DNA of 64,000 nucleotides from a virus (Duplodnaviria; Heunggongvirae; Uroviricota; Caudoviricetes): the IMG/VR virus record IMGVR_UViG_2531839524_000004. The stretch is one strand, 5' to 3'. The notes below the pieces were generated by a model. That model ran no database searches, was not told the DNA's origin, and saw only the letters and a program-made list of their open reading frames with translations. The translations under genes and the position numbers were made by a program. Shown here in pieces: positions 3,434 through 60,013 of this stretch (position 1 is its first letter; each line of letters starts with the position of its first letter).

Positions 3434-4201
3434 TTATGCCGCGCTAACACTATGTTCAGTCCTAACCACCCCAACCTTCACAAAAGGGCTACCGTAGCTT
3501 GGTGGCTTCTTGATTAATTTGCCTACATACAGTTTTCTAATATGCTCATCGGCTATTCTGCCAACAAATTCATAACGTTTTGTGTCGGGGCCAAGAGCTA
3601 TATCCCTTGTAAAGTACTGCTGAGAACCGGCTTTGACCCAGCATTCAATCTGATAAACTTCCATTATCAGCCCACCATATGTAGCGTAGGCATATTTGAG
3701 ATTCTCGTCTCTTGGAACCTTTGCCCATACGCCACGCGTAGCTTCATATAATGCCAGAGCGGACATTCCTGACTTGTAGGTGCTGTTTAGCAGGAAGGCA
3801 AGACCGGCGTGCTCAGGAGCAATTTCAGTTTCCTCTTGCAGCACTAAGTGATGGTAGGCGTCCAGTGATATTCTGCCCATCATGGAACCACTTCCTCGTA
3901 CCTTATTCGTAAGCTCTCCGACCCCCATAAGGTCGATGCATGTCGCCTCAACAAGTTTGGCTGTGGTTTCATCCATACCATGACGAAGTATATCTATGCC
4001 TAATTTTTTATTAGCCAAAAGTTCTTTGATCCGCATGGATTTGGGAGAGTCATCGGGATACTTGATGTGATCGAGACAACGAGTCGATTTGCCTTTTCCT
4101 ATGTAAAACGGTCTTTTCATCTTGTCTTCTGTATCATAGAGACAGTAAACATAGTATTTAGCCTTATCCAATGATCTCGCGTATACCGATAAATCGTCCA
4201 T
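3434..4201 (-). CDS. GIY-YIG-type nuclease domain protein (possible homing-endonuclease-like)
   Basis: N-terminal YVYCLYD...FYIGKGK...R motif typical of GIY-YIG; 255 aa; isolated minus-strand gene. Confidence 0.55.
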   Translation of the reverse strand: MDDLSVYARSLDKAKYYVYCLYDTEDKMKRPFYIGKGKSTRCLDHIKYPDDSPKSMRIKELLANKKLGIDILRHGMDETTAKLVEATCIDLMGVGELTNKVRGSGSMMGRISLDAYHHLVLQEETEIAPEHAGLAFLLNSTYKSGMSALALYEATRGVWAKVPRDENLKYAYATYGGLIMEVYQIECWVKAGSQQYFTRDIALGPDTKRYEFVGRIADEHIRKLYVGKLIKKPPSYGSPFVKVGVVRTEHSVSAA

Positions 4202-17897: not shown

Positions 17898-17995
17898 TCC
17901 CTCTTCTACCTGCGCGAATGGCTTAGTTCCCTGTTCGCGCAGTGCTACATTAAACACACTAGTAAATAATTTGTTTTCATAACAAAGGATTAGCC

Positions 17996-52094: not shown

Positions 52095-52688
52095 ATGATT
52101 GCAGCCGAAAAAATCAAACAGCGAAAGCGCGACAACTCTCTTCGTGACCTCTGGAGAACACCTGACTGGCTGTTTTCTGCCATTCAACGTTATCTTGGAG
52201 TGACATTTGATGTTGACGTTGCCTGCAACAAGGACAATGCAAAGCTGCCTAATTTCATAGGCGTTGAGCGTGATGCTTTGAAATCTGAATGGGGACAGCC
52301 AGGTACAATTGCCTTCCTCAATCCACCCTACTCCAAAATCTCCCCCTGGATTGATGCGGCTATACGTGAGCAGGCTCCCGGAGTTACAACAGTGATGCTA
52401 ATTCCTCAATCCCTAGATACAAAGTGGTATGAGCGTGCAACAGAGTGTGCGAATGAGACGATTATTCTGTCTGGTGGCCGCGTAGCGTTTGTCGAGCCTG
52501 ACGTAAATCTGGGTCAGGTAGAAGTAAACATCAACCCAGGTGGCAGTATGCTCGTTGTTTTTCGAGGATTCTGTCAGGACGCTGGGCACTCTATAAGCAA
52601 GATCCCTTTGGACGTCATGAAAAGTCTGGGAGGGTATGATCCTGCGAATGTGATCAGGAAAAAAAGACCATCAAAGAAGGCTGCTTAG
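52095..52688 (+). CDS. phage-type N6-adenine DNA methyltransferase (Dam-like)
   Basis: Catalytic motif FLNPPYS (DPPY/NPPY class) and small size (197 aa) typical of phage Dam family. Confidence 0.7.
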   Translation: MIAAEKIKQRKRDNSLRDLWRTPDWLFSAIQRYLGVTFDVDVACNKDNAKLPNFIGVERDALKSEWGQPGTIAFLNPPYSKISPWIDAAIREQAPGVTTVMLIPQSLDTKWYERATECANETIILSGGRVAFVEPDVNLGQVEVNINPGGSMLVVFRGFCQDAGHSISKIPLDVMKSLGGYDPANVIRKKRPSKKAA

Positions 52689-52708
52689 TTTGTTCTGGTG
52701 TCTGTAAT

Positions 52709-52768
52709 TAGCCTGCTTCTGTATATATAAATAACTACATATTAATTATTAATATACGGAAGAAGGCT
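52709..52768. repeat. second copy of AT-rich palindromic element
   Basis: AGCCTGCTTCTGTATATATAAATAA identical to 4320..4344; partner arm TTAATATACGGAAGAAGGCTG degenerate. Confidence 0.55.
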
Positions 52769-52873
52769 GTTTTGTATCAGAGACTCCAGACCTGAACATC
52801 ACTACAGAATCCACTAGAACCCCTTCCCAGACGCTTTAAAATCGATTTTATGAACCACTTTAAGGAAACCAAC

Positions 52874-53104
52874 ATGTCATACCCGACTAATGTCGTTGCG
52901 CTCGTAGAGAGCGATTTTCTGGCCCAGGCTCGTGAAATGATGAAAGATCGTGAGCAGGCTTTCAACTTGTACGAATGGGCAATTAAGTGCTTGCATCTTG
53001 GCGAGCATCGCGAACTTGTTGAACAGCTTTTAGGTGAGTTGATCAATGAGGTGTTTGCCTTGAATGTTCAACTACATGGTAGAGAAAATAATCAATCACA
53101 ATGA
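52874..53104 (+). CDS. hypothetical small protein
   Basis: 76 aa from ATG 52874 with AAGGAAACC RBS. Confidence 0.35.
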   Translation: MSYPTNVVALVESDFLAQAREMMKDREQAFNLYEWAIKCLHLGEHRELVEQLLGELINEVFALNVQLHGRENNQSQ

Positions 53105-53686
53105 TAGATAAGTACAAACTATTCATAAAGTGAATTGTAAGTGCTAAGATCTGATAGTTTCCAGTCGTAGACTGGAGACTCGACCTGATGGGTGGGGGTA
53201 AGCGTCACTGGCGTCAGGTTTAAAAAAGCTCACTACCAGCGTAGAACTGGTGCCGTTTAGGTGTCGGGGAAGGGGGAACCAAAGTGAGCAGAGACAAGGG
53301 TCACTTTATGATTGTCGAGTCTGGGGTGTTTCGAGAGGTTGAATCCAGTACTCCCCTTCATAAAGTGTGGGAAGATCTCGGTTCTGGGGTGCTGTCATCC
53401 ATAACTTCCCAAGTCTAAGCTGGCAGTAGACTTAGACCATAACTTTTCAGGTTATGAAACGACCAGGTTGGTGAGAGATTTTTATACTCACCTCCCTGGG
53501 AGAGTATTACCTGAAAAGACAACCTCTCACTTCGTTCGAGGTGAACTTCACTCACTTCGTTCGTTCAGTTCAGGTTTATAAAAACCTGTTCTGGGAAGTA
53601 ATTTGTTTATTTTAATAATTATTAACACGCACGCGTGTGCGCACGCGCGAGGAAAAATCGGCGCGGCGCTTGATTCAGGAGTTTAT

Positions 53687-54277
53687 ATGACGACGAAGAC
53701 ACCAGCCCGATCGCAAGCAAAAACTCGCAAAAAAGCCAAAAACAAAAATTCCCCCCGCACCAATCCCACAACGCCTGTCGTAGAGTTCAATCCCCAGCTT
53801 AAAACCGTGAAAATCTTTAGTGATGGCTCTTGCCTTAAAAATCCGGGTGGCCCGGGCGGTTACGGTATCGTTCTCCAGTATCGTGGTGAGGAACGCGAGT
53901 TCTCAGATGGTTTTCATAGCACCACCAATAACCGCATGGAGATGATGGGGGCACTTATCGGGCTGGAGCGTTTGAAATATCCATGCAACGTTATTTTGCA
54001 CTCTGATAGCCAGTATCTGAAAAACGGCATGACACAGTGGATGAAATGGTGGAAACGCAATGGATGGATGACTTCTGACAAAAAACCGGTAAAGAATGTT
54101 GATCTGTGGAAGCGTCTGGATGAGGCCGCAAGTCGACATAATGTTCGCTGGAAGTGGGTTAAAGGCCACGCCGGGCATCGTGAGAATGAAATATGCGATC
54201 GACTCGCGAAGATCGCAGCTTTTTCAGCAGCAGATATGCCTCACAAGAAAGATATTGGTTTTGTTTATAATAAGTAG
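53687..54277 (+). CDS. rnhA: ribonuclease HI with basic N-terminal extension
   Basis: [57 protein letters not shown] closely match RNase HI. Confidence 0.85.
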
Positions 54278-54425
54278 TAAGTAAGTGTTTACCTATCATT
54301 TTAAATCATGTATCTTATCGGCGTCAGGATGACAATGTGTCGGTAAGACACAGTTCCAGGATGGAACGAGAAAGGCGGCTGGCAATCGCCAGCCGCAACT
54401 CTTTCTGACACTGGATGGGGTCCAC

Positions 54426-54920
54426 ATGGCACGTCAAACCTATTTCACTTCTGCAACTAAACGTCCTCGTTCTTTACGTCAAATTTTGGCCGAATTATTT
54501 AGCGGTCGTGTTATGTCACGTCTTGATGAACTAGAGACTACCGTTCGGTTGCTGAATGAACGTTTAGATAATCAAGCGTCAGTTGTTGCGAACGTGGGGG
54601 CGATTGTTGCCTCTGGTTCTTCACGCGAAGCGAAAAGTACACGGCCTTTAGTGAAGGAGAAAAACAACAAGGACAGTTCGAATGGAAAATTTTCAAAGAA
54701 AGAGGCTGAAACCAATGGCCTACGTTCTCATTATAGTTTCACTGGCGACGGTAGCCGTTCCAGCCGGCCAGAGCCTTTTGATGCCGGATTCATCCATCAC
54801 CACACCTTCGTCGACGACAATTACCACCACTCCAGTGGAGCGTCCTGTCACTCTGGATGGGATGGCGGTGGATGCGATACCTCAAGTTCATCCAGTTACT
54901 CAGGATCATGCTGTGACTAA
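54426..54920 (+). CDS. hypothetical protein; 3' half frame-ambiguous with overlapping ORF 54715..54933
   Basis: N-terminal 85 aa look protein-like; C-terminal low-complexity Ser/Cys/Gly tail overlaps an alternative frame encoding a signal-peptide-like protein. Confidence 0.3.
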   Translation: MARQTYFTSATKRPRSLRQILAELFSGRVMSRLDELETTVRLLNERLDNQASVVANVGAIVASGSSREAKSTRPLVKEKNNKDSSNGKFSKKEAETNGLRSHYSFTGDGSRSSRPEPFDAGFIHHHTFVDDNYHHSSGASCHSGWDGGGCDTSSSSSYSGSCCD

Positions 54921-54929
54921 GGCGGTTGT

Positions 54930-55118
54930 ATGAACTGGTTTTCAAATCACTTTGGAAAAATTTGGCTGGCAATTCTTGCCCTTATGGTCGCCGGTTGGGT
55001 ATCGAACATTATAAAACTTGTTTGCTCTGGCGATCTCCAGTTTCAGGCTGGCATGACCTTGGCTCGTGTAGTTGGGATTTTTGTTTTTCCAGTTGGTTCG
55101 GTACTTGGTTATTTCTGA
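54930..55118 (+). CDS. small two-helix membrane protein
   Basis: 62 aa, two hydrophobic helices; ATGA overlap with upstream frame. Confidence 0.4.
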   Translation: MNWFSNHFGKIWLAILALMVAGWVSNIIKLVCSGDLQFQAGMTLARVVGIFVFPVGSVLGYF

Positions 55119-55211
55119 CGGCTGTTAGTGCATATGCATTGACCATCTCTGCGTAAGCAATTTATGTAATTAGAAAACAACTTGTTTTGACAAATAATAA
55201 AAGGAAAGCAC

Positions 55212-55637
55212 ATGTTAGGTTTCTTCAAAAAGAAAACTCGTAAAGCTGTTATCGAAGTCAAAAAAATGGAGAACCGTGATGCGGTTGAGGCCACCGTGTG
55301 GGGCGCGTACATGATCTCCTATGCCGACGGCACATGTGACGCAAAAGAAATTGCCATTCTTGAGAAGACAATTGCAGCTCTGCCTGCGTTTTCTCCGTTT
55401 GCTGGTGAAATTGCCCAAATGAGCGCCAATATCCGTGCTCGTTACGAAGCGTCCCCTCGTTCTGCTAATGCACAGGCTATTCGTGAGCTGTCTGATATTG
55501 CGGGTACTCCAGAGGCGGTCGATGTTCTGTGTCTGTGCCTTGATATTGCCGATCAGGACGGCATTGGTGAACAAGAAGAGCAGGCACTGAAAAAGATCGC
55601 CCAGGCGCTTCAGTTGTCACTGGATGCTTATCTCTAA
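55212..55637 (+). CDS. TerB-like domain protein
   Basis: By-eye resemblance to TerB tellurite-resistance domain (SYADGTCDAKEIAILE...DIADQDGIGEQEEQALKKIA); conserved leader upstream. Confidence 0.5.
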   Translation: MLGFFKKKTRKAVIEVKKMENRDAVEATVWGAYMISYADGTCDAKEIAILEKTIAALPAFSPFAGEIAQMSANIRARYEASPRSANAQAIRELSDIAGTPEAVDVLCLCLDIADQDGIGEQEEQALKKIAQALQLSLDAYL

Positions 55638-55796
55638 TGCTTGAGAGATTCCGGCTTGTGATCGTCATTGCTCTTCTGGTGATGGCGGGGTTGGTGGATT
55701 TTACGGGAAAGATGATGTCTGTCATTTCTGATGGCGTCCTCATTGGTTTGGCGATCTACTTCGCTTATCCGTTAGTTCGTAAAGCAAAGTGTTAAT
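55638..55796 (+). CDS. small membrane peptide (52 aa)
   Basis: ATG overlaps TerB-like stop (TAATG); hydrophobic sequence; followed by strong terminator; not in ORF track (under 60 aa). Confidence 0.4.
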
Positions 55797-55798
55797 GA

Positions 55799-55828
55799 CA
55801 AGGGCCAAATGGCCCTTGTGTTTCGTTG
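55799..55828 (+). terminator. rho-independent terminator
   Basis: ACAAGGGCC-aaat-GGCCCTTGT followed by GTTTCGTT. Confidence 0.7.
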
Positions 55829-55934
55829 ACCGAAATAGAGAGTTTGCACCTTTACGTTTAGCTTGCTCCCCTTTTATGCCACATCACAATAAAGCCAATA
55901 AGAAAACAACTTGTTTAAGCATTAGGAAAAACAC

Positions 55935-56504
55935 ATGTGCAAGAAATGCAAAGCGATAGCTGATGAACAAAACGCCTTATTCGAAGAAATGGATGCTAAT
56001 GAACTGGTCAAAATGTTAGCCATTCTTCGAGGAATAGAAGACGTTTCCATATTTGAGAGAGTGGTTACAGCACTTAATTTTGAGTCCACCTTTGAAGAGC
56101 CAACTCAGGTTGTAGCTTTAGCACATCATTTCGGTGTTCATTATCTTGCTGAAAAAGAGCGCGCTGATAAGTTGCAGGCGACTTTGGATATGGTGAGCGA
56201 GACTCAACGAACTGATGACACTAACAAGAGTGAGGCGATTATTGCCAGCAAAGATCGTGAAATTGCTGGGCTTAAATCCTCTCTAACGATGTTGATGTCT
56301 GCGTTCAATCTTATGTCTTCTCAGGCGGGTTATAAAATGCCATCACTAAACAGCGATGATCCGATGGCCGTTCGTCAGCTTTTGGGAGCAATGGCCGACC
56401 AACTCGACGACACAAAGAGTCGGCTTGAAGACATGATGCGTGAGTTAAGCCATCGACATAACCTCGCAACACAGCCACACAAAGCCTTTCAAAGCTCTAA
56501 TTGA
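55935..56504 (+). CDS. hypothetical protein
   Basis: 189 aa; conserved leader GGAAAAACACATG. Confidence 0.5.
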   Translation: MCKKCKAIADEQNALFEEMDANELVKMLAILRGIEDVSIFERVVTALNFESTFEEPTQVVALAHHFGVHYLAEKERADKLQATLDMVSETQRTDDTNKSEAIIASKDREIAGLKSSLTMLMSAFNLMSSQAGYKMPSLNSDDPMAVRQLLGAMADQLDDTKSRLEDMMRELSHRHNLATQPHKAFQSSN

Positions 56505-56559
56505 TCTGATATGGCCGCATGATCGGCCATATTGTGTTGATAAAAAACAAGGATGAAAA

Positions 56560-56841
56560 ATGGCATACGGTACAGGGATTTACAACAATAAAGGAATTAA
56601 CGTTACTGGCTTCCTTACTCCTATTTTTTTTCTTGATCGATTTACTGCGTCATCAGGCTCTAAGACGTACTCCAATCCGCCACCGGGTAAATCGCTACAT
56701 GCCGTGTGGTCATTGATGCCTCTTAACAACGACAACTACATTAATTTACCTGTTCCAACAGTTACTATTAATGGAAATACGGTTAGTTGGTCAAATTTAT
56801 ATACGGGGCTTGGTTCTTACATATACACATACTGGGGATAA
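56560..56841 (+). CDS. hypothetical protein (AT-rich cassette)
   Basis: 93 aa; Gly/Asn/Thr/Tyr-rich. Confidence 0.4.
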   Translation: MAYGTGIYNNKGINVTGFLTPIFFLDRFTASSGSKTYSNPPPGKSLHAVWSLMPLNNDNYINLPVPTVTINGNTVSWSNLYTGLGSYIYTYWG

Positions 56842-56843
56842 TT

Positions 56844-57458
56844 ATGTTCGGGATGTCAATTACTCAATCAGATGGAAGTTTGTGGATGAGTCCAGAATTT
56901 ACTCCGCAAAATCTGATTAATAAAGGGACAATGTCTACATCTAAAGGTTCTGTTTTTCAAACATCAATCCCATCAAACAAATCATGCTTTTTCTTCATAA
57001 AAAGCAGTAATAAGGCGAACATGATGTTTATTCATGAGCATAGTAACGGATACAATGCTCTCAGATTGCATCAGGTAAATGGTAGCCCCGGAACAATAAC
57101 AGTTTATGCTTTTTCTGATATGGTGTTACCACATTCTGGCTATGGCATTGCCATGTATAACAGCGCAGGCGCAATGGTGTATCACGGTGAGATGATGCCC
57201 CTTGATGCGAAACTTATCACTATTTCGGACCCTCAATTTACCATAGATGTGGGGTATCCGTGTGCGGTAATGCCTGCTATGGTTGGGGTTTATAACTATA
57301 GACGAACCGATTACGACAGACCTGTCTATGTAACTATGACCGGTGCAACTGGAAACCAAGTATATAACGGTCAATGGTATTCCGGTAATGTCACATGGGA
57401 TATTAAGAAGATTTATACAAACAAAATCCTGGTTATAAATACCTCAAAGTATGATTAG
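56844..57458 (+). CDS. hypothetical protein (AT-rich cassette)
   Basis: ATG 56844 directly after upstream stop; 204 aa; Gly/Asn/Tyr-rich. Confidence 0.45.
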   Translation: MFGMSITQSDGSLWMSPEFTPQNLINKGTMSTSKGSVFQTSIPSNKSCFFFIKSSNKANMMFIHEHSNGYNALRLHQVNGSPGTITVYAFSDMVLPHSGYGIAMYNSAGAMVYHGEMMPLDAKLITISDPQFTIDVGYPCAVMPAMVGVYNYRRTDYDRPVYVTMTGATGNQVYNGQWYSGNVTWDIKKIYTNKILVINTSKYD

Positions 57459-57561
57459 CAAATACCTTTATTTAAAGGATTGCCTGTTAATTTCTATTTA
57501 GCACCTTTTCATTTTTGAAATAATTGCACCATTAAACAAATCTTTTCTTAATGGTGCAATT

Positions 57562-59247
57562 ATGAATACAGCTCTTTCCATCATCGACGATGCCAACTCA
57601 AACACTGCTATCGATTATCGTCAGGAAATGAACGTCATCCACGAAATTGTGGCCGAGTGCGAGAAGGAGATCGCCTTCATGTATCAGGTTCACGACTTCG
57701 TTTATGGAGACGAACGCCACAACATGATTAATCGCCTGCTGCAACTGAACCACCGACCAGATGAAGAACGCTCACGTTTGAATCGAGCTTGGCTGGATAA
57801 AGTCGATCTGGAATGGGTGAAACAGAATATTTGGGCCGAGTACTGGAGGAAGGTCACGGATATGACTAACGTTCTGCTGATCATGCCAGCTTCCCGTCGC
57901 GACGAGTGGCGTGAGCAGTTTATCGAGGGTAAGCAGGAAGTCATCAAAACTGACAGAACCGGCTATCAGATGAAGGTAAAAGAGTTCGTTGGTGTACCGG
58001 AGTTCAAAGCAGAAACGGTCATACCCACGATGCTTAATTTGCTGAATGACAGGCACAAATATCTCTCTGAGCGCGTGTATGGCTTGTTTAAGGCGCTGAG
58101 TCCTGCGCACAAGACAAATAAGACAAACGGTTTCAGCGAACGTCTGATAATCGCTGACTGCATTTCTGATTTCTGGCGGGACAGCGTTAGTGTGAACTAT
58201 CGCAAAGAGGACTATATCGACGATCTGCGTGTCTTGCTTCATTTCTTCGCGCACAAAGAATTTATTACCATCAACCGCACTGCTGAGGTGCTATCAGCTG
58301 CGTATCGGGCAAACGACTGCCGGACCGGTGACTGGATGAACGTCGATGGAAATCTGATGCGCGTGAAGATGTTCAAGAACGGCAACGTTCACTTTGAAAT
58401 ACATCCTGACGTGGCCTGGAAGTTGAATGAGGGGCTGGCTTACAGTATGCCTGCTGCAATCCCCGCGCCATGTCGCACCGCGCCAAAAACACGGGCACCA
58501 AAGCAGTTCGGGTTAATCCAGAAGACGATCTCCGTGCCGGTTCGCACTGCGCTTCGTGACGGGCGATTGAGCAAAGACAAAGGCGTATGGTACTTCTCTG
58601 ATTCAGCTCTCCAGAAGTCGCAGGTGGAAGAGCTTGAGCGCACACTGAGCTTCATTGGCGGCGTGCAGGAGAAAAAGCACTGGCAGTTCCCGTATGACAT
58701 CGTCCATACGCTAAATACGATTGTGGCTACCGGTTTAATACCGGATACAAAATCACACCAGTTCTACCCTCCCCCACGCTTGATTGCTGAGTACGTTGCC
58801 AGAGCCACTGAATTGAAGTCTGGTGAGAAGCTGCTGGAGCCTCAAGCCGGACGTGGGGATCTTCTGGCCTATATTAACGCCGATCTGGAAGATGTTACCT
58901 GCATAGAAATCGCACCTCTCTTCGCTGATATCCTGCGTGGAAAAGGGTATACGAACACGATTTGCTGCGACTTCATAAAGTGGTCTGAGGACAACGTAGG
59001 TTATCAGTTCGACAAAATCGTTATGAACCCGCCGTATTCGCTTGGTCGTCATAGAGAGCACACGCTGGCTGCGCTGGGGCATCTGAAAGTCGGCGGGCGT
59101 CTTGTAGCAGTATTGCCGGGCACTGCGCCAATACTGGACTGGATGACGATGGATAATTACGTTTATGCCAGAGGGAAGTCGTTTACCAACGAGTTTGAAG
59201 ACACAGGGATCACAGTCAGCGTATACGTTTTCAAACGCGTTAAATGA
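57562..59247 (+). CDS. large protein with C-terminal amino-methyltransferase domain (gamma-class, NPPY)
   Basis: C-terminal motif I-like LLEPQAGRGDLL and motif IV IVMNPPYS; N-terminal about 400 aa without recognisable motifs. Confidence 0.65.
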   Translation: MNTALSIIDDANSNTAIDYRQEMNVIHEIVAECEKEIAFMYQVHDFVYGDERHNMINRLLQLNHRPDEERSRLNRAWLDKVDLEWVKQNIWAEYWRKVTDMTNVLLIMPASRRDEWREQFIEGKQEVIKTDRTGYQMKVKEFVGVPEFKAETVIPTMLNLLNDRHKYLSERVYGLFKALSPAHKTNKTNGFSERLIIADCISDFWRDSVSVNYRKEDYIDDLRVLLHFFAHKEFITINRTAEVLSAAYRANDCRTGDWMNVDGNLMRVKMFKNGNVHFEIHPDVAWKLNEGLAYSMPAAIPAPCRTAPKTRAPKQFGLIQKTISVPVRTALRDGRLSKDKGVWYFSDSALQKSQVEELERTLSFIGGVQEKKHWQFPYDIVHTLNTIVATGLIPDTKSHQFYPPPRLIAEYVARATELKSGEKLLEPQAGRGDLLAYINADLEDVTCIEIAPLFADILRGKGYTNTICCDFIKWSEDNVGYQFDKIVMNPPYSLGRHREHTLAALGHLKVGGRLVAVLPGTAPILDWMTMDNYVYARGKSFTNEFEDTGITVSVYVFKRVK

Positions 59248-59308
59248 TAGGTAAATACTTACCTAATTTGTGTAAGAATGTAGTTACTAAACGATAAGAG
59301 AAAAACAC

Positions 59309-60013
59309 ATGAACAACCTCCAGTTAGAGCATTTTAACGTCACAGGCCATTCTGATTTTCCTTTCAAGTTTACATTGAAAGGTTATGCAGAGGATGCGGT
59401 AGGCCAGATCATTATTGATAAAGGCATCGTTAAGTTTGAGGGGGATTTTGATGAATCCGCGAAAACATTCATAGACTTCGTTGCCAAACGTTGGAGCGAG
59501 CAATGGAAAAACCTGGAAAAGCGCGCCAATGAGTTTGATCGGTTCATGGATGCAATGGATACAGCAAAAGAGGCTCTTGATGCCGGGACTCCGTTAGATC
59601 TGGAGTCACTTTTCAACGGCGAAGTGGCCTCTGCGATGTTTGCCACCATGTTCGCGGGTGAGTTCGTCCGCAGCGGTGCCAAAAACTACCTTGAGCTGGA
59701 TTACAACGTCCCTGCAATTGGCGATTTCGTCGTTACCATCCAACGCAAAGAAGGTAAGACGCCAGGTGAACGCGTCGCAGAGCTTGAGGCCGTTGTGGAT
59801 CAGCGTAACGGAGAGTGTGACCGTTTGATCAACGAGCTTCATGCACTTCGGGAAGAAAGAATATGTGCGGGTAGCAATACACGTAATGCAGCGGATATCT
59901 ACTTCCAGTTAGTTGAGGAATGCCAGATTCCACCAGGTGGCTCTCTTGTCGATTACGTCAGACATTTAATGGCGGAAGTTAACTCCAGCCATAAAGATGG
60001 TGAGGTGCGCTGA
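59309..60013 (+). CDS. hypothetical protein
   Basis: 234 aa; conserved leader AGAAAAACACATG. Confidence 0.5.
   Translation: MNNLQLEHFNVTGHSDFPFKFTLKGYAEDAVGQIIIDKGIVKFEGDFDESAKTFIDFVAKRWSEQWKNLEKRANEFDRFMDAMDTAKEALDAGTPLDLESLFNGEVASAMFATMFAGEFVRSGAKNYLELDYNVPAIGDFVVTIQRKEGKTPGERVAELEAVVDQRNGECDRLINELHALREERICAGSNTRNAADIYFQLVEECQIPPGGSLVDYVRHLMAEVNSSHKDGEVR

Follow-up and report, generated by a model that had tools for sequence, protein, structure and literature searches.

The DNA analysed here is a stretch of 64,000 nucleotides from the IMG/VR virus record IMGVR_UViG_2531839524_000004 (Caudoviricetes), referred to below as the window, and the interval under study extends from position 54,426 to position 55,828. 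Its sequence identifies the window as an SSU5-like phage-plasmid of E. coli. The interval consists of two unrelated units. One (55173..55819) carries tciA and tciB, i.e. a gene for a TerB-like protein followed by a gene for a small predicted membrane hairpin. The other (54426..55118) carries a 164-amino acid open reading frame (ORF1), an ORF embedded in its tail in the +1 frame, and a gene for a 62-amino acid membrane protein. The identity of tciA and tciB and their organization as a module are very likely correct as described here. The account as a whole, in which identity and module, dual coding and biological role are blended, we consider reasonably probable.

The tciA gene (55212..55637, + strand) encodes a protein of 141 amino acids. 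This matches the Pfam TerB family (PF05099; E = 2.4e-7) with a score of 31.5 bits, where the gathering cut-off is 24.4, the alignment spanning positions 9-109 of the 118 in the profile, and close homologues carry a precomputed match to the same family. It also matches phrog_632 ('tellurite resistance') with E = 5e-63. The TciA protein of phage P1 is 78.7% identical with all 141/141 residues aligned, and the record of the Escherichia phage-plasmid Cyrano already names the two genes 'P1 TciA-like' and 'P1 TciB-like'. The structural model of TciA is an all-helical bundle that is TerB-like by fold search. At its N-terminus the protein is hydrophobic and polybasic (MLGFFKKKTRK), and this is conserved as MxGxxKK-x-RK. 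There are two acidic motifs, YADGTCDAKE and ADQDGIGEQEE, and at residues D39, D43, E46, D111, D114 and G117 there is little or no variation across 20 homologues. No hydrophobic segment is seen in the hydropathy profile of TciA, which is expected to be cytoplasmic.

On comparing the window with the Klebsiella, Cronobacter and Enterobacter ludwigii clades, the proportion of non-synonymous differences (pN) in tciA is 0.04-0.05 and that of synonymous differences (pS) is 0.62-0.68, i.e. saturated. A pN/pS ratio of 0.07 in the face of saturated synonymous divergence indicates that tciA is functional. Across the clades the identity of TciA is 91-92%, compared with 80-84% for ribonuclease (RNase) HI and 41-67% for the immediate neighbours; TciA is the best-conserved protein of its neighbourhood. 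The gene is under long-term and very strong purifying selection, and its conservation does not reflect a recent transfer. Two database calls from Cronobacter- and Klebsiella-type elements (P0013 and P0009; 226 and 175 amino acids) join a frameshifted 62-amino acid gene, or upstream non-coding DNA, to TciA. These are probably mis-calls or pseudogenes.

Directly after tciA lies tciB (55637..55795, + strand), which encodes 52 amino acids matching PF13064 (DUF3927; E = 2.2e-11) and phrog_1470 ('TciB-like'). The two genes overlap by the single A of TAATG, through which translation of tciB is predicted to be coupled to that of tciA. TciB has two hydrophobic segments in its hydropathy profile and is predicted to form a two-helix hairpin in the inner membrane. 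The topology would be N-in/C-in; positive residues at both ends fit this, and it is compatible with a fusion protein discussed below. The pN/pS of tciB is 0.28-0.57, with values of 0.28-0.39 when the window is set against the three clades used for tciA. An intrinsic terminator (55798..55819, + strand) begins 3 nucleotides (nt) after the tciB stop codon and closes the unit. It has a stem of 9 bp followed by the T-rich GTTTCGTT, and at -21.6 kcal/mol (z = -5.2) the extended fold is matched in stability by 0/200 shuffled sequences. The 35-amino acid ORF tciC is not present 3′ of tciB, and it is also unannotated in phages Fostie, JLK-2012 and FSL SP-058.

All the ORFs listed in a preliminary description of this DNA, made without database searches, are present in the sequence. 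It had proposed a TerB-like protein with a small membrane peptide downstream and a strong terminator after it; the profile match, the terminator stability and the self-contained layout of the unit all agree with this. The 52-amino acid peptide likewise exists, although its coordinates had been placed one base too far downstream (55638..55796). The known P1 tciA/tciB pair went unrecognized in that description, and the part in membrane stress or exclusion that it put forward is hypothetical, in the literature as well as here.

The association of tciA with tciB is close. The content of the locus was surveyed in 83 SSU5-like loci, comprising 81 that were fetched together with the reference phage locus and the window, and tciB lies directly 3′ of tciA in 58/58 complete loci that carry the gene. 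A TciB-like gene also follows a TerB-like gene in P1, P7 and D6, in the lambdoid-type phages Fostie and JLK-2012, and in the virulent N4-like Schitoviridae FSL SP-058, FSL SP-076 and Pollock. In Pseudomonas phage ZY21 the TerB-like gene is followed by a DUF3927 gene with a mis-called start. Erwinia jumbo phage Asesino has a 60-amino acid hairpin ORF with a similar C-terminal WPVIK and no Pfam match, and in PMBT3 the TerB-like gene is without a partner. A word-indexed search with TciB returned close relatives only.

Two further arrangements bear on the pairing. In the virulent Schitoviridae Vibrio phage PhiImVa-1 (L088, 1..1123) a TerC gene lies directly upstream of a TciA-like TerB gene and there is no DUF3927 gene, so that TciB and TerC seem to be alternatives as the membrane partner. 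On one contig, a 196-amino acid protein (P0101) comprises a P1-type TciA and the P1 TciB fused together, matching both PF05099 and PF13064; this could be a real fusion, or the result of stop-codon loss or a sequencing error. The linkage in 58/58 loci, the recurrence of the pair in unrelated phages, the fusion in P0101 and the exchange for TerC in PhiImVa-1 together argue that tciA and tciB act as a pair.

The closest known counterpart is the tciA-tciB(-tciC) group in the 'ban operon' region of P1. There too TciA has 141 amino acids (79% identical), the DUF3927 hairpin gene comes next with a stop/start overlap, and the genes are non-structural accessory cargo. By contrast tciC is lacking here, TciB is only 37% identical, and while the P1 genes belong to a C1-controlled tRNA/ban operon, those in the window occupy a slot of the SSU5 genome with their own upstream motif and terminator.

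This slot lies between the 62-amino acid gene and a gene for a 189-amino acid protein (55935..56504, phrog_5508). It contains tciA and tciB in 58 of the 83 loci, a Rha/antirepressor gene in 13 (including SSU5 and pHCM2) and other genes in 9; it is empty in 2, and in 1 locus tciA stands alone where the contig end cuts the locus. ORF1, the +1-frame ORF and the 62-amino acid gene are present whatever the slot holds, so relatives with and without tciAB both have the 62-amino acid gene. Since the content of the slot varies while the upstream genes persist, we regard tciAB as cargo, and ORF1, the +1-frame ORF and the 62-amino acid gene as SSU5 backbone. The earlier suggestion that the whole interval might be a single cassette of four genes is thus rejected: the upstream genes occur in SSU5, pHCM2 and others that lack the TerB gene.

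Two exact copies of a palindromic motif, GAAAACAACTTGTTT, bracket the tciAB insert. The first (55173..55187, + strand) ends 24 nt 5′ of the tciA ATG, and the second (55902..55916, + strand) ends 18 nt 5′ of the ATG at 55935 that starts the phrog_5508 gene. The window contains 10 matches to the motif where 0.44 would be expected. In the form GAAAACAAnTTGTTT, mostly following ATAA or TTA, it is found on the + strand at 2304, 5235, 31432, 44954, 55173 and 55902, with weaker matches on the - strand at 17978 and 60459. The distance from the end of the motif to the start codon is 16-35 nt for the genes of a ParA/MipZ-like protein, a DnaB-like helicase, an Api92-like protein, the small subunit of ribonucleotide reductase, TciA and the 189-amino acid protein. 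Other SSU5-like loci carry the motif at equivalent sites. A relative with an empty slot (L013) has one copy 5′ of its homologue of the phrog_5508 gene. The motif is likely to be a promoter or operator specific to this family, and modules may also be exchanged at it; in P1, Fostie and JLK-2012 no copy lies near tciA. Because it has its own upstream motif and its own terminator around the two coupled genes, tciAB is a unit in its own right, wired like the DNA-metabolism genes of the backbone.

What might TciA and TciB do? In P1 the tciABC genes lie downstream of C1-repressed ban promoters, in the lambdoid phages tciAB comes after Q and before the lysis genes, and in the window tciA follows a motif common to replication and nucleotide-metabolism genes. 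The shared motif and these two settings suggest that tciAB acts during phage development. The pair is carried by temperate and virulent phages alike. We infer a physical complex of the two proteins, in which TciA would dock at the cytoplasmic face of the inner membrane through TciB and its own hydrophobic and polybasic N-terminus. DjlA has a membrane-anchored TerB module, and TciA-TciB may be a minimal version either of this or of the TerB-TerC pairing. Such a complex would be active while the phage develops, rather than conferring tellurite resistance on the lysogen, and might buffer or sense the status of the inner membrane or of divalent ions. The infected cell would thereby tolerate membrane insults arising from superinfecting phage, colicins or the abortive-infection effectors of the host. 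We offer this specific role tentatively, as one that is rather less than likely.

Several observations weigh against this account of tciAB. A direct sequence search of solved structures with TciA reached no TerB protein and nothing else of relevance, and a PADLOC scan of six proteins (E <= 0.01) gave no match, TciA fitting no defence model. No report of an experimental function for any phage tciA or terB gene was found in the literature. In P1, tciABC was named 'by homology' only, and it was found to be non-essential in a CRISPR interference screen and dispensable for plaque formation. In relatives from Cronobacter and E. ludwigii the region 5′ of tciA yielded no copy of the motif, and position is the sole basis for taking it as a likely SSU5-family promoter or operator.

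The principal alternative for tciAB is a function in the lysogen, i.e. that the pair is a determinant of lysogenic conversion comparable to terZABCDE, providing resistance to tellurite or colicins, or phage exclusion, in line with the names given to it in databases. Membership of the TerB family is in keeping with this. The family is shared with TerB of the terZABCDEF operon (PF05099; TerB-like structures 2H5N and 2OU3), which is responsible for tellurite resistance, phage inhibition and colicin resistance, and with which TciA has in common the all-helical fold, paired acidic Asp-Gly...Glu motifs and an expected membrane association. Yet the partners TerZ, A, C, D and E are lacking here, and the membrane partner is a 52-amino acid hairpin rather than the multi-pass TerC. 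Among the scanned neighbouring genes from 52095 to 60013 there is no member of the Ter families (TerC, TerD-family, TerZ/A/E), and papers on lone phage terB genes regard these as unexplained and consider a lone terB insufficient for resistance. TerB domains also occur in the Bunzi and Shango defence systems, where they are proposed to be membrane surveyors. TciA shares the domain and the proposed membrane role with these, but it has no helicase, ATPase or other effector adjacent and, as noted, no PADLOC match, and it is encoded by phages that include virulent ones. The layout, moron-like in that the unit brings its own upstream element and terminator, and the location of tciABC among the variable regions of P1-like elements would both suit a conversion gene; the occurrence of the pair in strictly virulent phages and its lytic-cycle operon settings in P1 and the lambdoid phages would not. 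We therefore consider a conversion role unlikely. Tellurite resistance at the level of the lysogen is in particular unlikely, since any further ter gene is lacking and the pair is retained in virulent phages.

The unit upstream of tciAB poses a different question. ORF1 (54426..54920, + strand; phrog_10411) encodes 164 amino acids, and inside its 3′ half the +1 frame contains an ORF of 83 amino acids (54682..54933, + strand) that matches phrog_15659 with E = 8e-47. The preliminary description had recognized this second frame, starting it at 54715; that position is the second ATG (giving 72 amino acids), and the ORF begins at 54682. It had also concluded that there must be a frameshift or a mis-called frame. 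The comparative data contradict this, since both frames are open in 53/55 unique sequences and selection can be detected in divergent relatives. We think it quite likely that the two are a conserved overlapping gene pair, i.e. that the DNA has true dual coding.

ORF1 has a long helix at its N-terminus, followed by a Ser/Gly/His/Asp-rich tail that is predicted to be disordered and that ends in a conserved motif, C-x-SGWD-x-x-G-x-D...CCD. In a single-sequence AlphaFold2 model the helix comprises residues 17-63, while residues 64-164 have a predicted local distance difference test (pLDDT) score below 52. A long helix and a low-confidence remainder fit a gene overprinted on a disordered tail. The embedded protein begins with basic residues, and its single hydrophobic segment resembles a signal peptide or membrane anchor; it also has a linker rich in Thr, Ser and Pro and the conserved motif LDGM-x-x-D-x-IP. 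Neither family is found outside this phage-plasmid lineage. An exhaustive HMMER search of 1.8 billion proteins found 16 representatives of ORF1, all of one lineage-specific family, and a profile search with the ORF1 alignment found 3 loci in genome contigs and 68 in viral contigs. A word-indexed search with the +1-frame ORF returned close relatives only, a distant stand-alone homologue being beyond the reach of such a search.

For the overlap, 81 homologous loci were reduced to 55 unique sequences. The exceptions to the open frames are two IMG/VR loci (L083 and L062; ORF1 region from ~3001) in which indels within the overlap push both ORFs into the third frame; these are either pseudogenised copies or assembly errors. 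In 53/53 intact variants the embedded ORF starts with ATG, and in every clade AAGGA or GGAG lies 7-9 nt upstream. The ORF1 codon at this inner ATG is AAT, CAT, GAT or TAT (Asn, His, Asp or Tyr) and is followed by GGA in 53/53. The ORF1 residue thus varies although the inner ATG is held constant. At the other end, the stop codon of the embedded ORF overlaps the start of the 62-amino acid gene as ATGA, or as GTGA in the Klebsiella clade, and the ORF1 frame always stops 9-10 nt before that gene.

The pattern of substitution changes where the embedded ORF begins. Over 53 sequences, the number of extra nucleotides per column at codon positions 1, 2 and 3 is 1.09, 0.76 and 1.62 in ORF1 codons 1-85, compared with 1.18, 0.80 and 0.68 in codons 86-164. 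The contrast between positions 1 and 3 flips at the boundary (P = 1e-4 and 7e-4), and invariant third positions rise from 6/79 before it to 35/76 after it (P = 4e-8). Using 7 representatives, the pN/pS over the whole overlap is 0.98 in the ORF1 frame, 0.58 in the +1 frame and 0.82 in the +2 frame as control, while the ORF1 frame outside the overlap has 0.50. Divided by region in a between-clade comparison, the values for the ORF1 and +1 frames are 0.43 and 0.99 for codons 1-45, 0.56 and 0.82 for codons 46-85, 1.94 and 0.30 for codons 86-110, 1.15 and 0.72 for codons 111-140, and 0.62 and 0.92 for codons 141-164. In the last of these regions pS falls in the two frames to 0.39 and 0.27, from 0.54-0.70 further upstream. 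Judged from these patterns, there is no doubt that the inner gene is coding, with the strongest signal over its membrane segment, nor that ORF1 is coding in its first half. Thereafter the ORF1 frame is kept open along a weakly constrained tail up to its conserved C-terminal motif. Shuffling of synonymous codons supports retention of the outer frame: given the inner protein, an open ORF1 frame has P = 0.02-0.19 in each of five clades.

There are points on the other side. The signal of selection on ORF1 within the overlap is weak, and a pN/pS of about 1 or higher in the ORF1 frame through codons 86-140 may mean that the tail is mostly unconstrained. The frames cannot be told apart by polymorphism within clades. 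Given the composition of ORF1, an open +1 frame is not significant (P = 0.13-1.0); this measure is uninformative because the hydrophilic composition of ORF1 keeps that frame free of stops in most synonymous shuffles.

These points lead to the most serious alternative to dual coding, namely that only the +1-frame ORF is functional beyond 54682 and that the C-terminal half of ORF1 is a read-through tail, open by chance. The disorder predicted for the tail would be expected on this basis, as would ORF1-frame ratios of 1.94 and 1.15 in the first two regions of the overlap and a whole-overlap value no better than that of the +2 control. Moreover the +1-frame protein is the better conserved of the two across clades (56-63% identity, compared with 41-49% for ORF1). 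Against this, chance would have to keep the ORF1 frame open in 53/53 intact variants with its stop at a constant distance from the next gene, at the shuffling probabilities given above; it would also have to preserve the C-terminal motif, and in codons 141-164 the lower ratio is that of the ORF1 frame, with synonymous divergence low in both frames. We consider such a mis-called frame improbable, and prefer dual coding.

A programmed ribosomal frameshift of +1 (or -2) near codon 80 of the ORF that starts at 54426 would generate a single product whose helical domain is cytoplasmic and is joined through a transmembrane segment to a Thr/Pro-rich tail in the periplasm. The coding signature does move from frame 0 to frame +1 at about this place, the fusion would make sense as a type-II membrane protein, and members of the Cronobacter clade have an open +1 frame over the entire ORF1. 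However, the embedded ORF has its own invariant ATG with the upstream AAGGA or GGAG in every clade. Going upstream from this ATG, the +1 frame is shut after 9 codons in the window and after 24 in the SSU5 and Klebsiella clades, and the short stretch so defined shows no conserved slippery or stall site. Nor would a dedicated frameshift require the ORF1 frame to be open to its end. We regard this explanation, and its fused product, as very unlikely.

The arrangement also recalls the spanin genes of lambda (Rz/Rz1) and P2 (lysB/lysC), where a signal-like gene in the +1 frame likewise lies within a larger gene and extends slightly past its end, both genes being conserved. As a lysis cassette, ORF1 and the embedded ORF would be spanins of the Rz/Rz1 type, i.e. 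a coiled-coil protein with a signal-like, proline-rich small gene inside it, and the small two-helix membrane protein that follows would be a holin-like partner. Here, however, the outer gene has no transmembrane segment (the maximum hydropathy over 17 residues is 1.03 and none reaches 1.6). The signal region of the inner protein has no Cys in the E. coli, SSU5, Cronobacter and E. ludwigii clades, and LITIC in the Klebsiella clade misfits a lipobox. No endolysin gene is adjacent, the neighbours being RNase HI, Dam and other DNA-metabolism genes. The spanin assignment is thus highly improbable, and we reject it. Finally, an indel from sequencing or assembly that split one gene into two frames can be discounted for the window: such frame-breaking indels do occur in the two exceptional relatives noted above, but the length of 495 nt and the frame layout are the same in 21 unique sequences of its own clade, and each of the other clades keeps both frames.

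The 62-amino acid gene (54930..55118, + strand; phrog_6006) completes the backbone unit. Its product has two hydrophobic helices by hydropathy, as proposed from first inspection of the sequence, and its pN/pS is 0.43-0.46. We take its start to be coupled to the stop of the embedded ORF. In Klebsiella phage pJN2-26 (L003, ~3480..3770) there is an unannotated homologue of 67% identity by tblastn, which appears to start at the GTG that overlaps the embedded-ORF stop. ORF1, the embedded ORF and the 62-amino acid gene are all real genes, and the trio is probably directed at the envelope. On our reading the embedded gene would be initiated separately inside the tail of ORF1, and would encode a signal-anchored or secreted peptide rich in Thr, Ser and Pro.

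Turning to the wider setting, the region 53500..57500 is 98-99% identical to the SSU5-group Escherichia phage-plasmids CMS-2020a and Cyrano, and SSU5-like elements of Klebsiella and Salmonella match it piecewise. Homologues of ORF1 are found in 680 plasmid records, nearly all non-mobilisable and of ~105-115 kb, among them pHCM2 of Salmonella Typhi. Upstream of the interval are genes for Dam methylase, RNase HI and an RNase T-like exonuclease, and downstream is one for a DUF4942 protein that is labelled DNA-modification methylase in relatives. The ORF1 unit is delimited on its 5′ side by a G+C-rich hairpin (54375..54396, + strand) that lies between the RNase HI gene and ORF1. This hairpin is symmetric and very stable (9-bp stem with 8 G-C pairs, -24.8 kcal/mol, z = -5.6); it looks terminator-like on both strands but has no clean T-run. 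The RNase HI ORF (53603..54277) was called from a TTG, giving 224 amino acids, whereas annotated relatives use an internal ATG (197 amino acids, 594 nt); the first 27 codons are probably untranslated. Just 3′ of the tciAB slot, the genes 56560..56841 (phrog_557, 'outer membrane protein') and 56853..57458 (phrog_425, 'membrane associated protein', moron category) have ~78% DNA identity to the unrelated phages JenP1, JenP2 and BRET, and look like a second piece of shared cargo. Scans of the interval with Rfam and for tRNA gave nothing at threshold, and an NCBIfam scan of the six proteins also scanned with PADLOC gave zero matches. A scan for sigma-70 promoters found fewer matches than in shuffled sequence and was not used.

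As a pair, TerB/DUF3927 has been recognized and annotated by homology before, and its presence here is unsurprising. What is new is the evidence of constraint, the obligatory pairing, the cargo slot bracketed by the motif, and the overlapping gene pair, which is mostly unannotated. Current concepts are unchanged by either finding. The RefSeq and GenBank records inspected annotate ORF1 alone, and the inner ORF is called in a few assemblies; an overlapping gene has thus been missed by RefSeq and most annotations in the SSU5/pHCM2 phage-plasmids, which are very common in enterobacteria and include the Salmonella Typhi plasmid. It is a clean example of overprinting on a disordered tail.

For tciAB, the evidence speaks against listing the pair as a resistance gene in plasmid surveys. 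The strong constraint, the pairing of TerB with a hairpin and the lytic-cycle settings, including virulent phages, make it a defined and cheap target for functional work. Two bolder readings, one for each unit, can be put forward: TciA-TciB would be a counter-defence or membrane-guard device in lytic growth, and the upstream trio an undescribed envelope-acting module of SSU5-like phage-plasmids with an overprinted gene at its core. The pair might, for example, serve as a TerB decoy or buffer and so blunt abortive-infection responses of the host that are pore-forming or based on TerB or TerC. These readings are speculative, and we give them a low probability. If true, a counter-defence or guard role would explain the extreme conservation of the pair and its spread among temperate and virulent phages.

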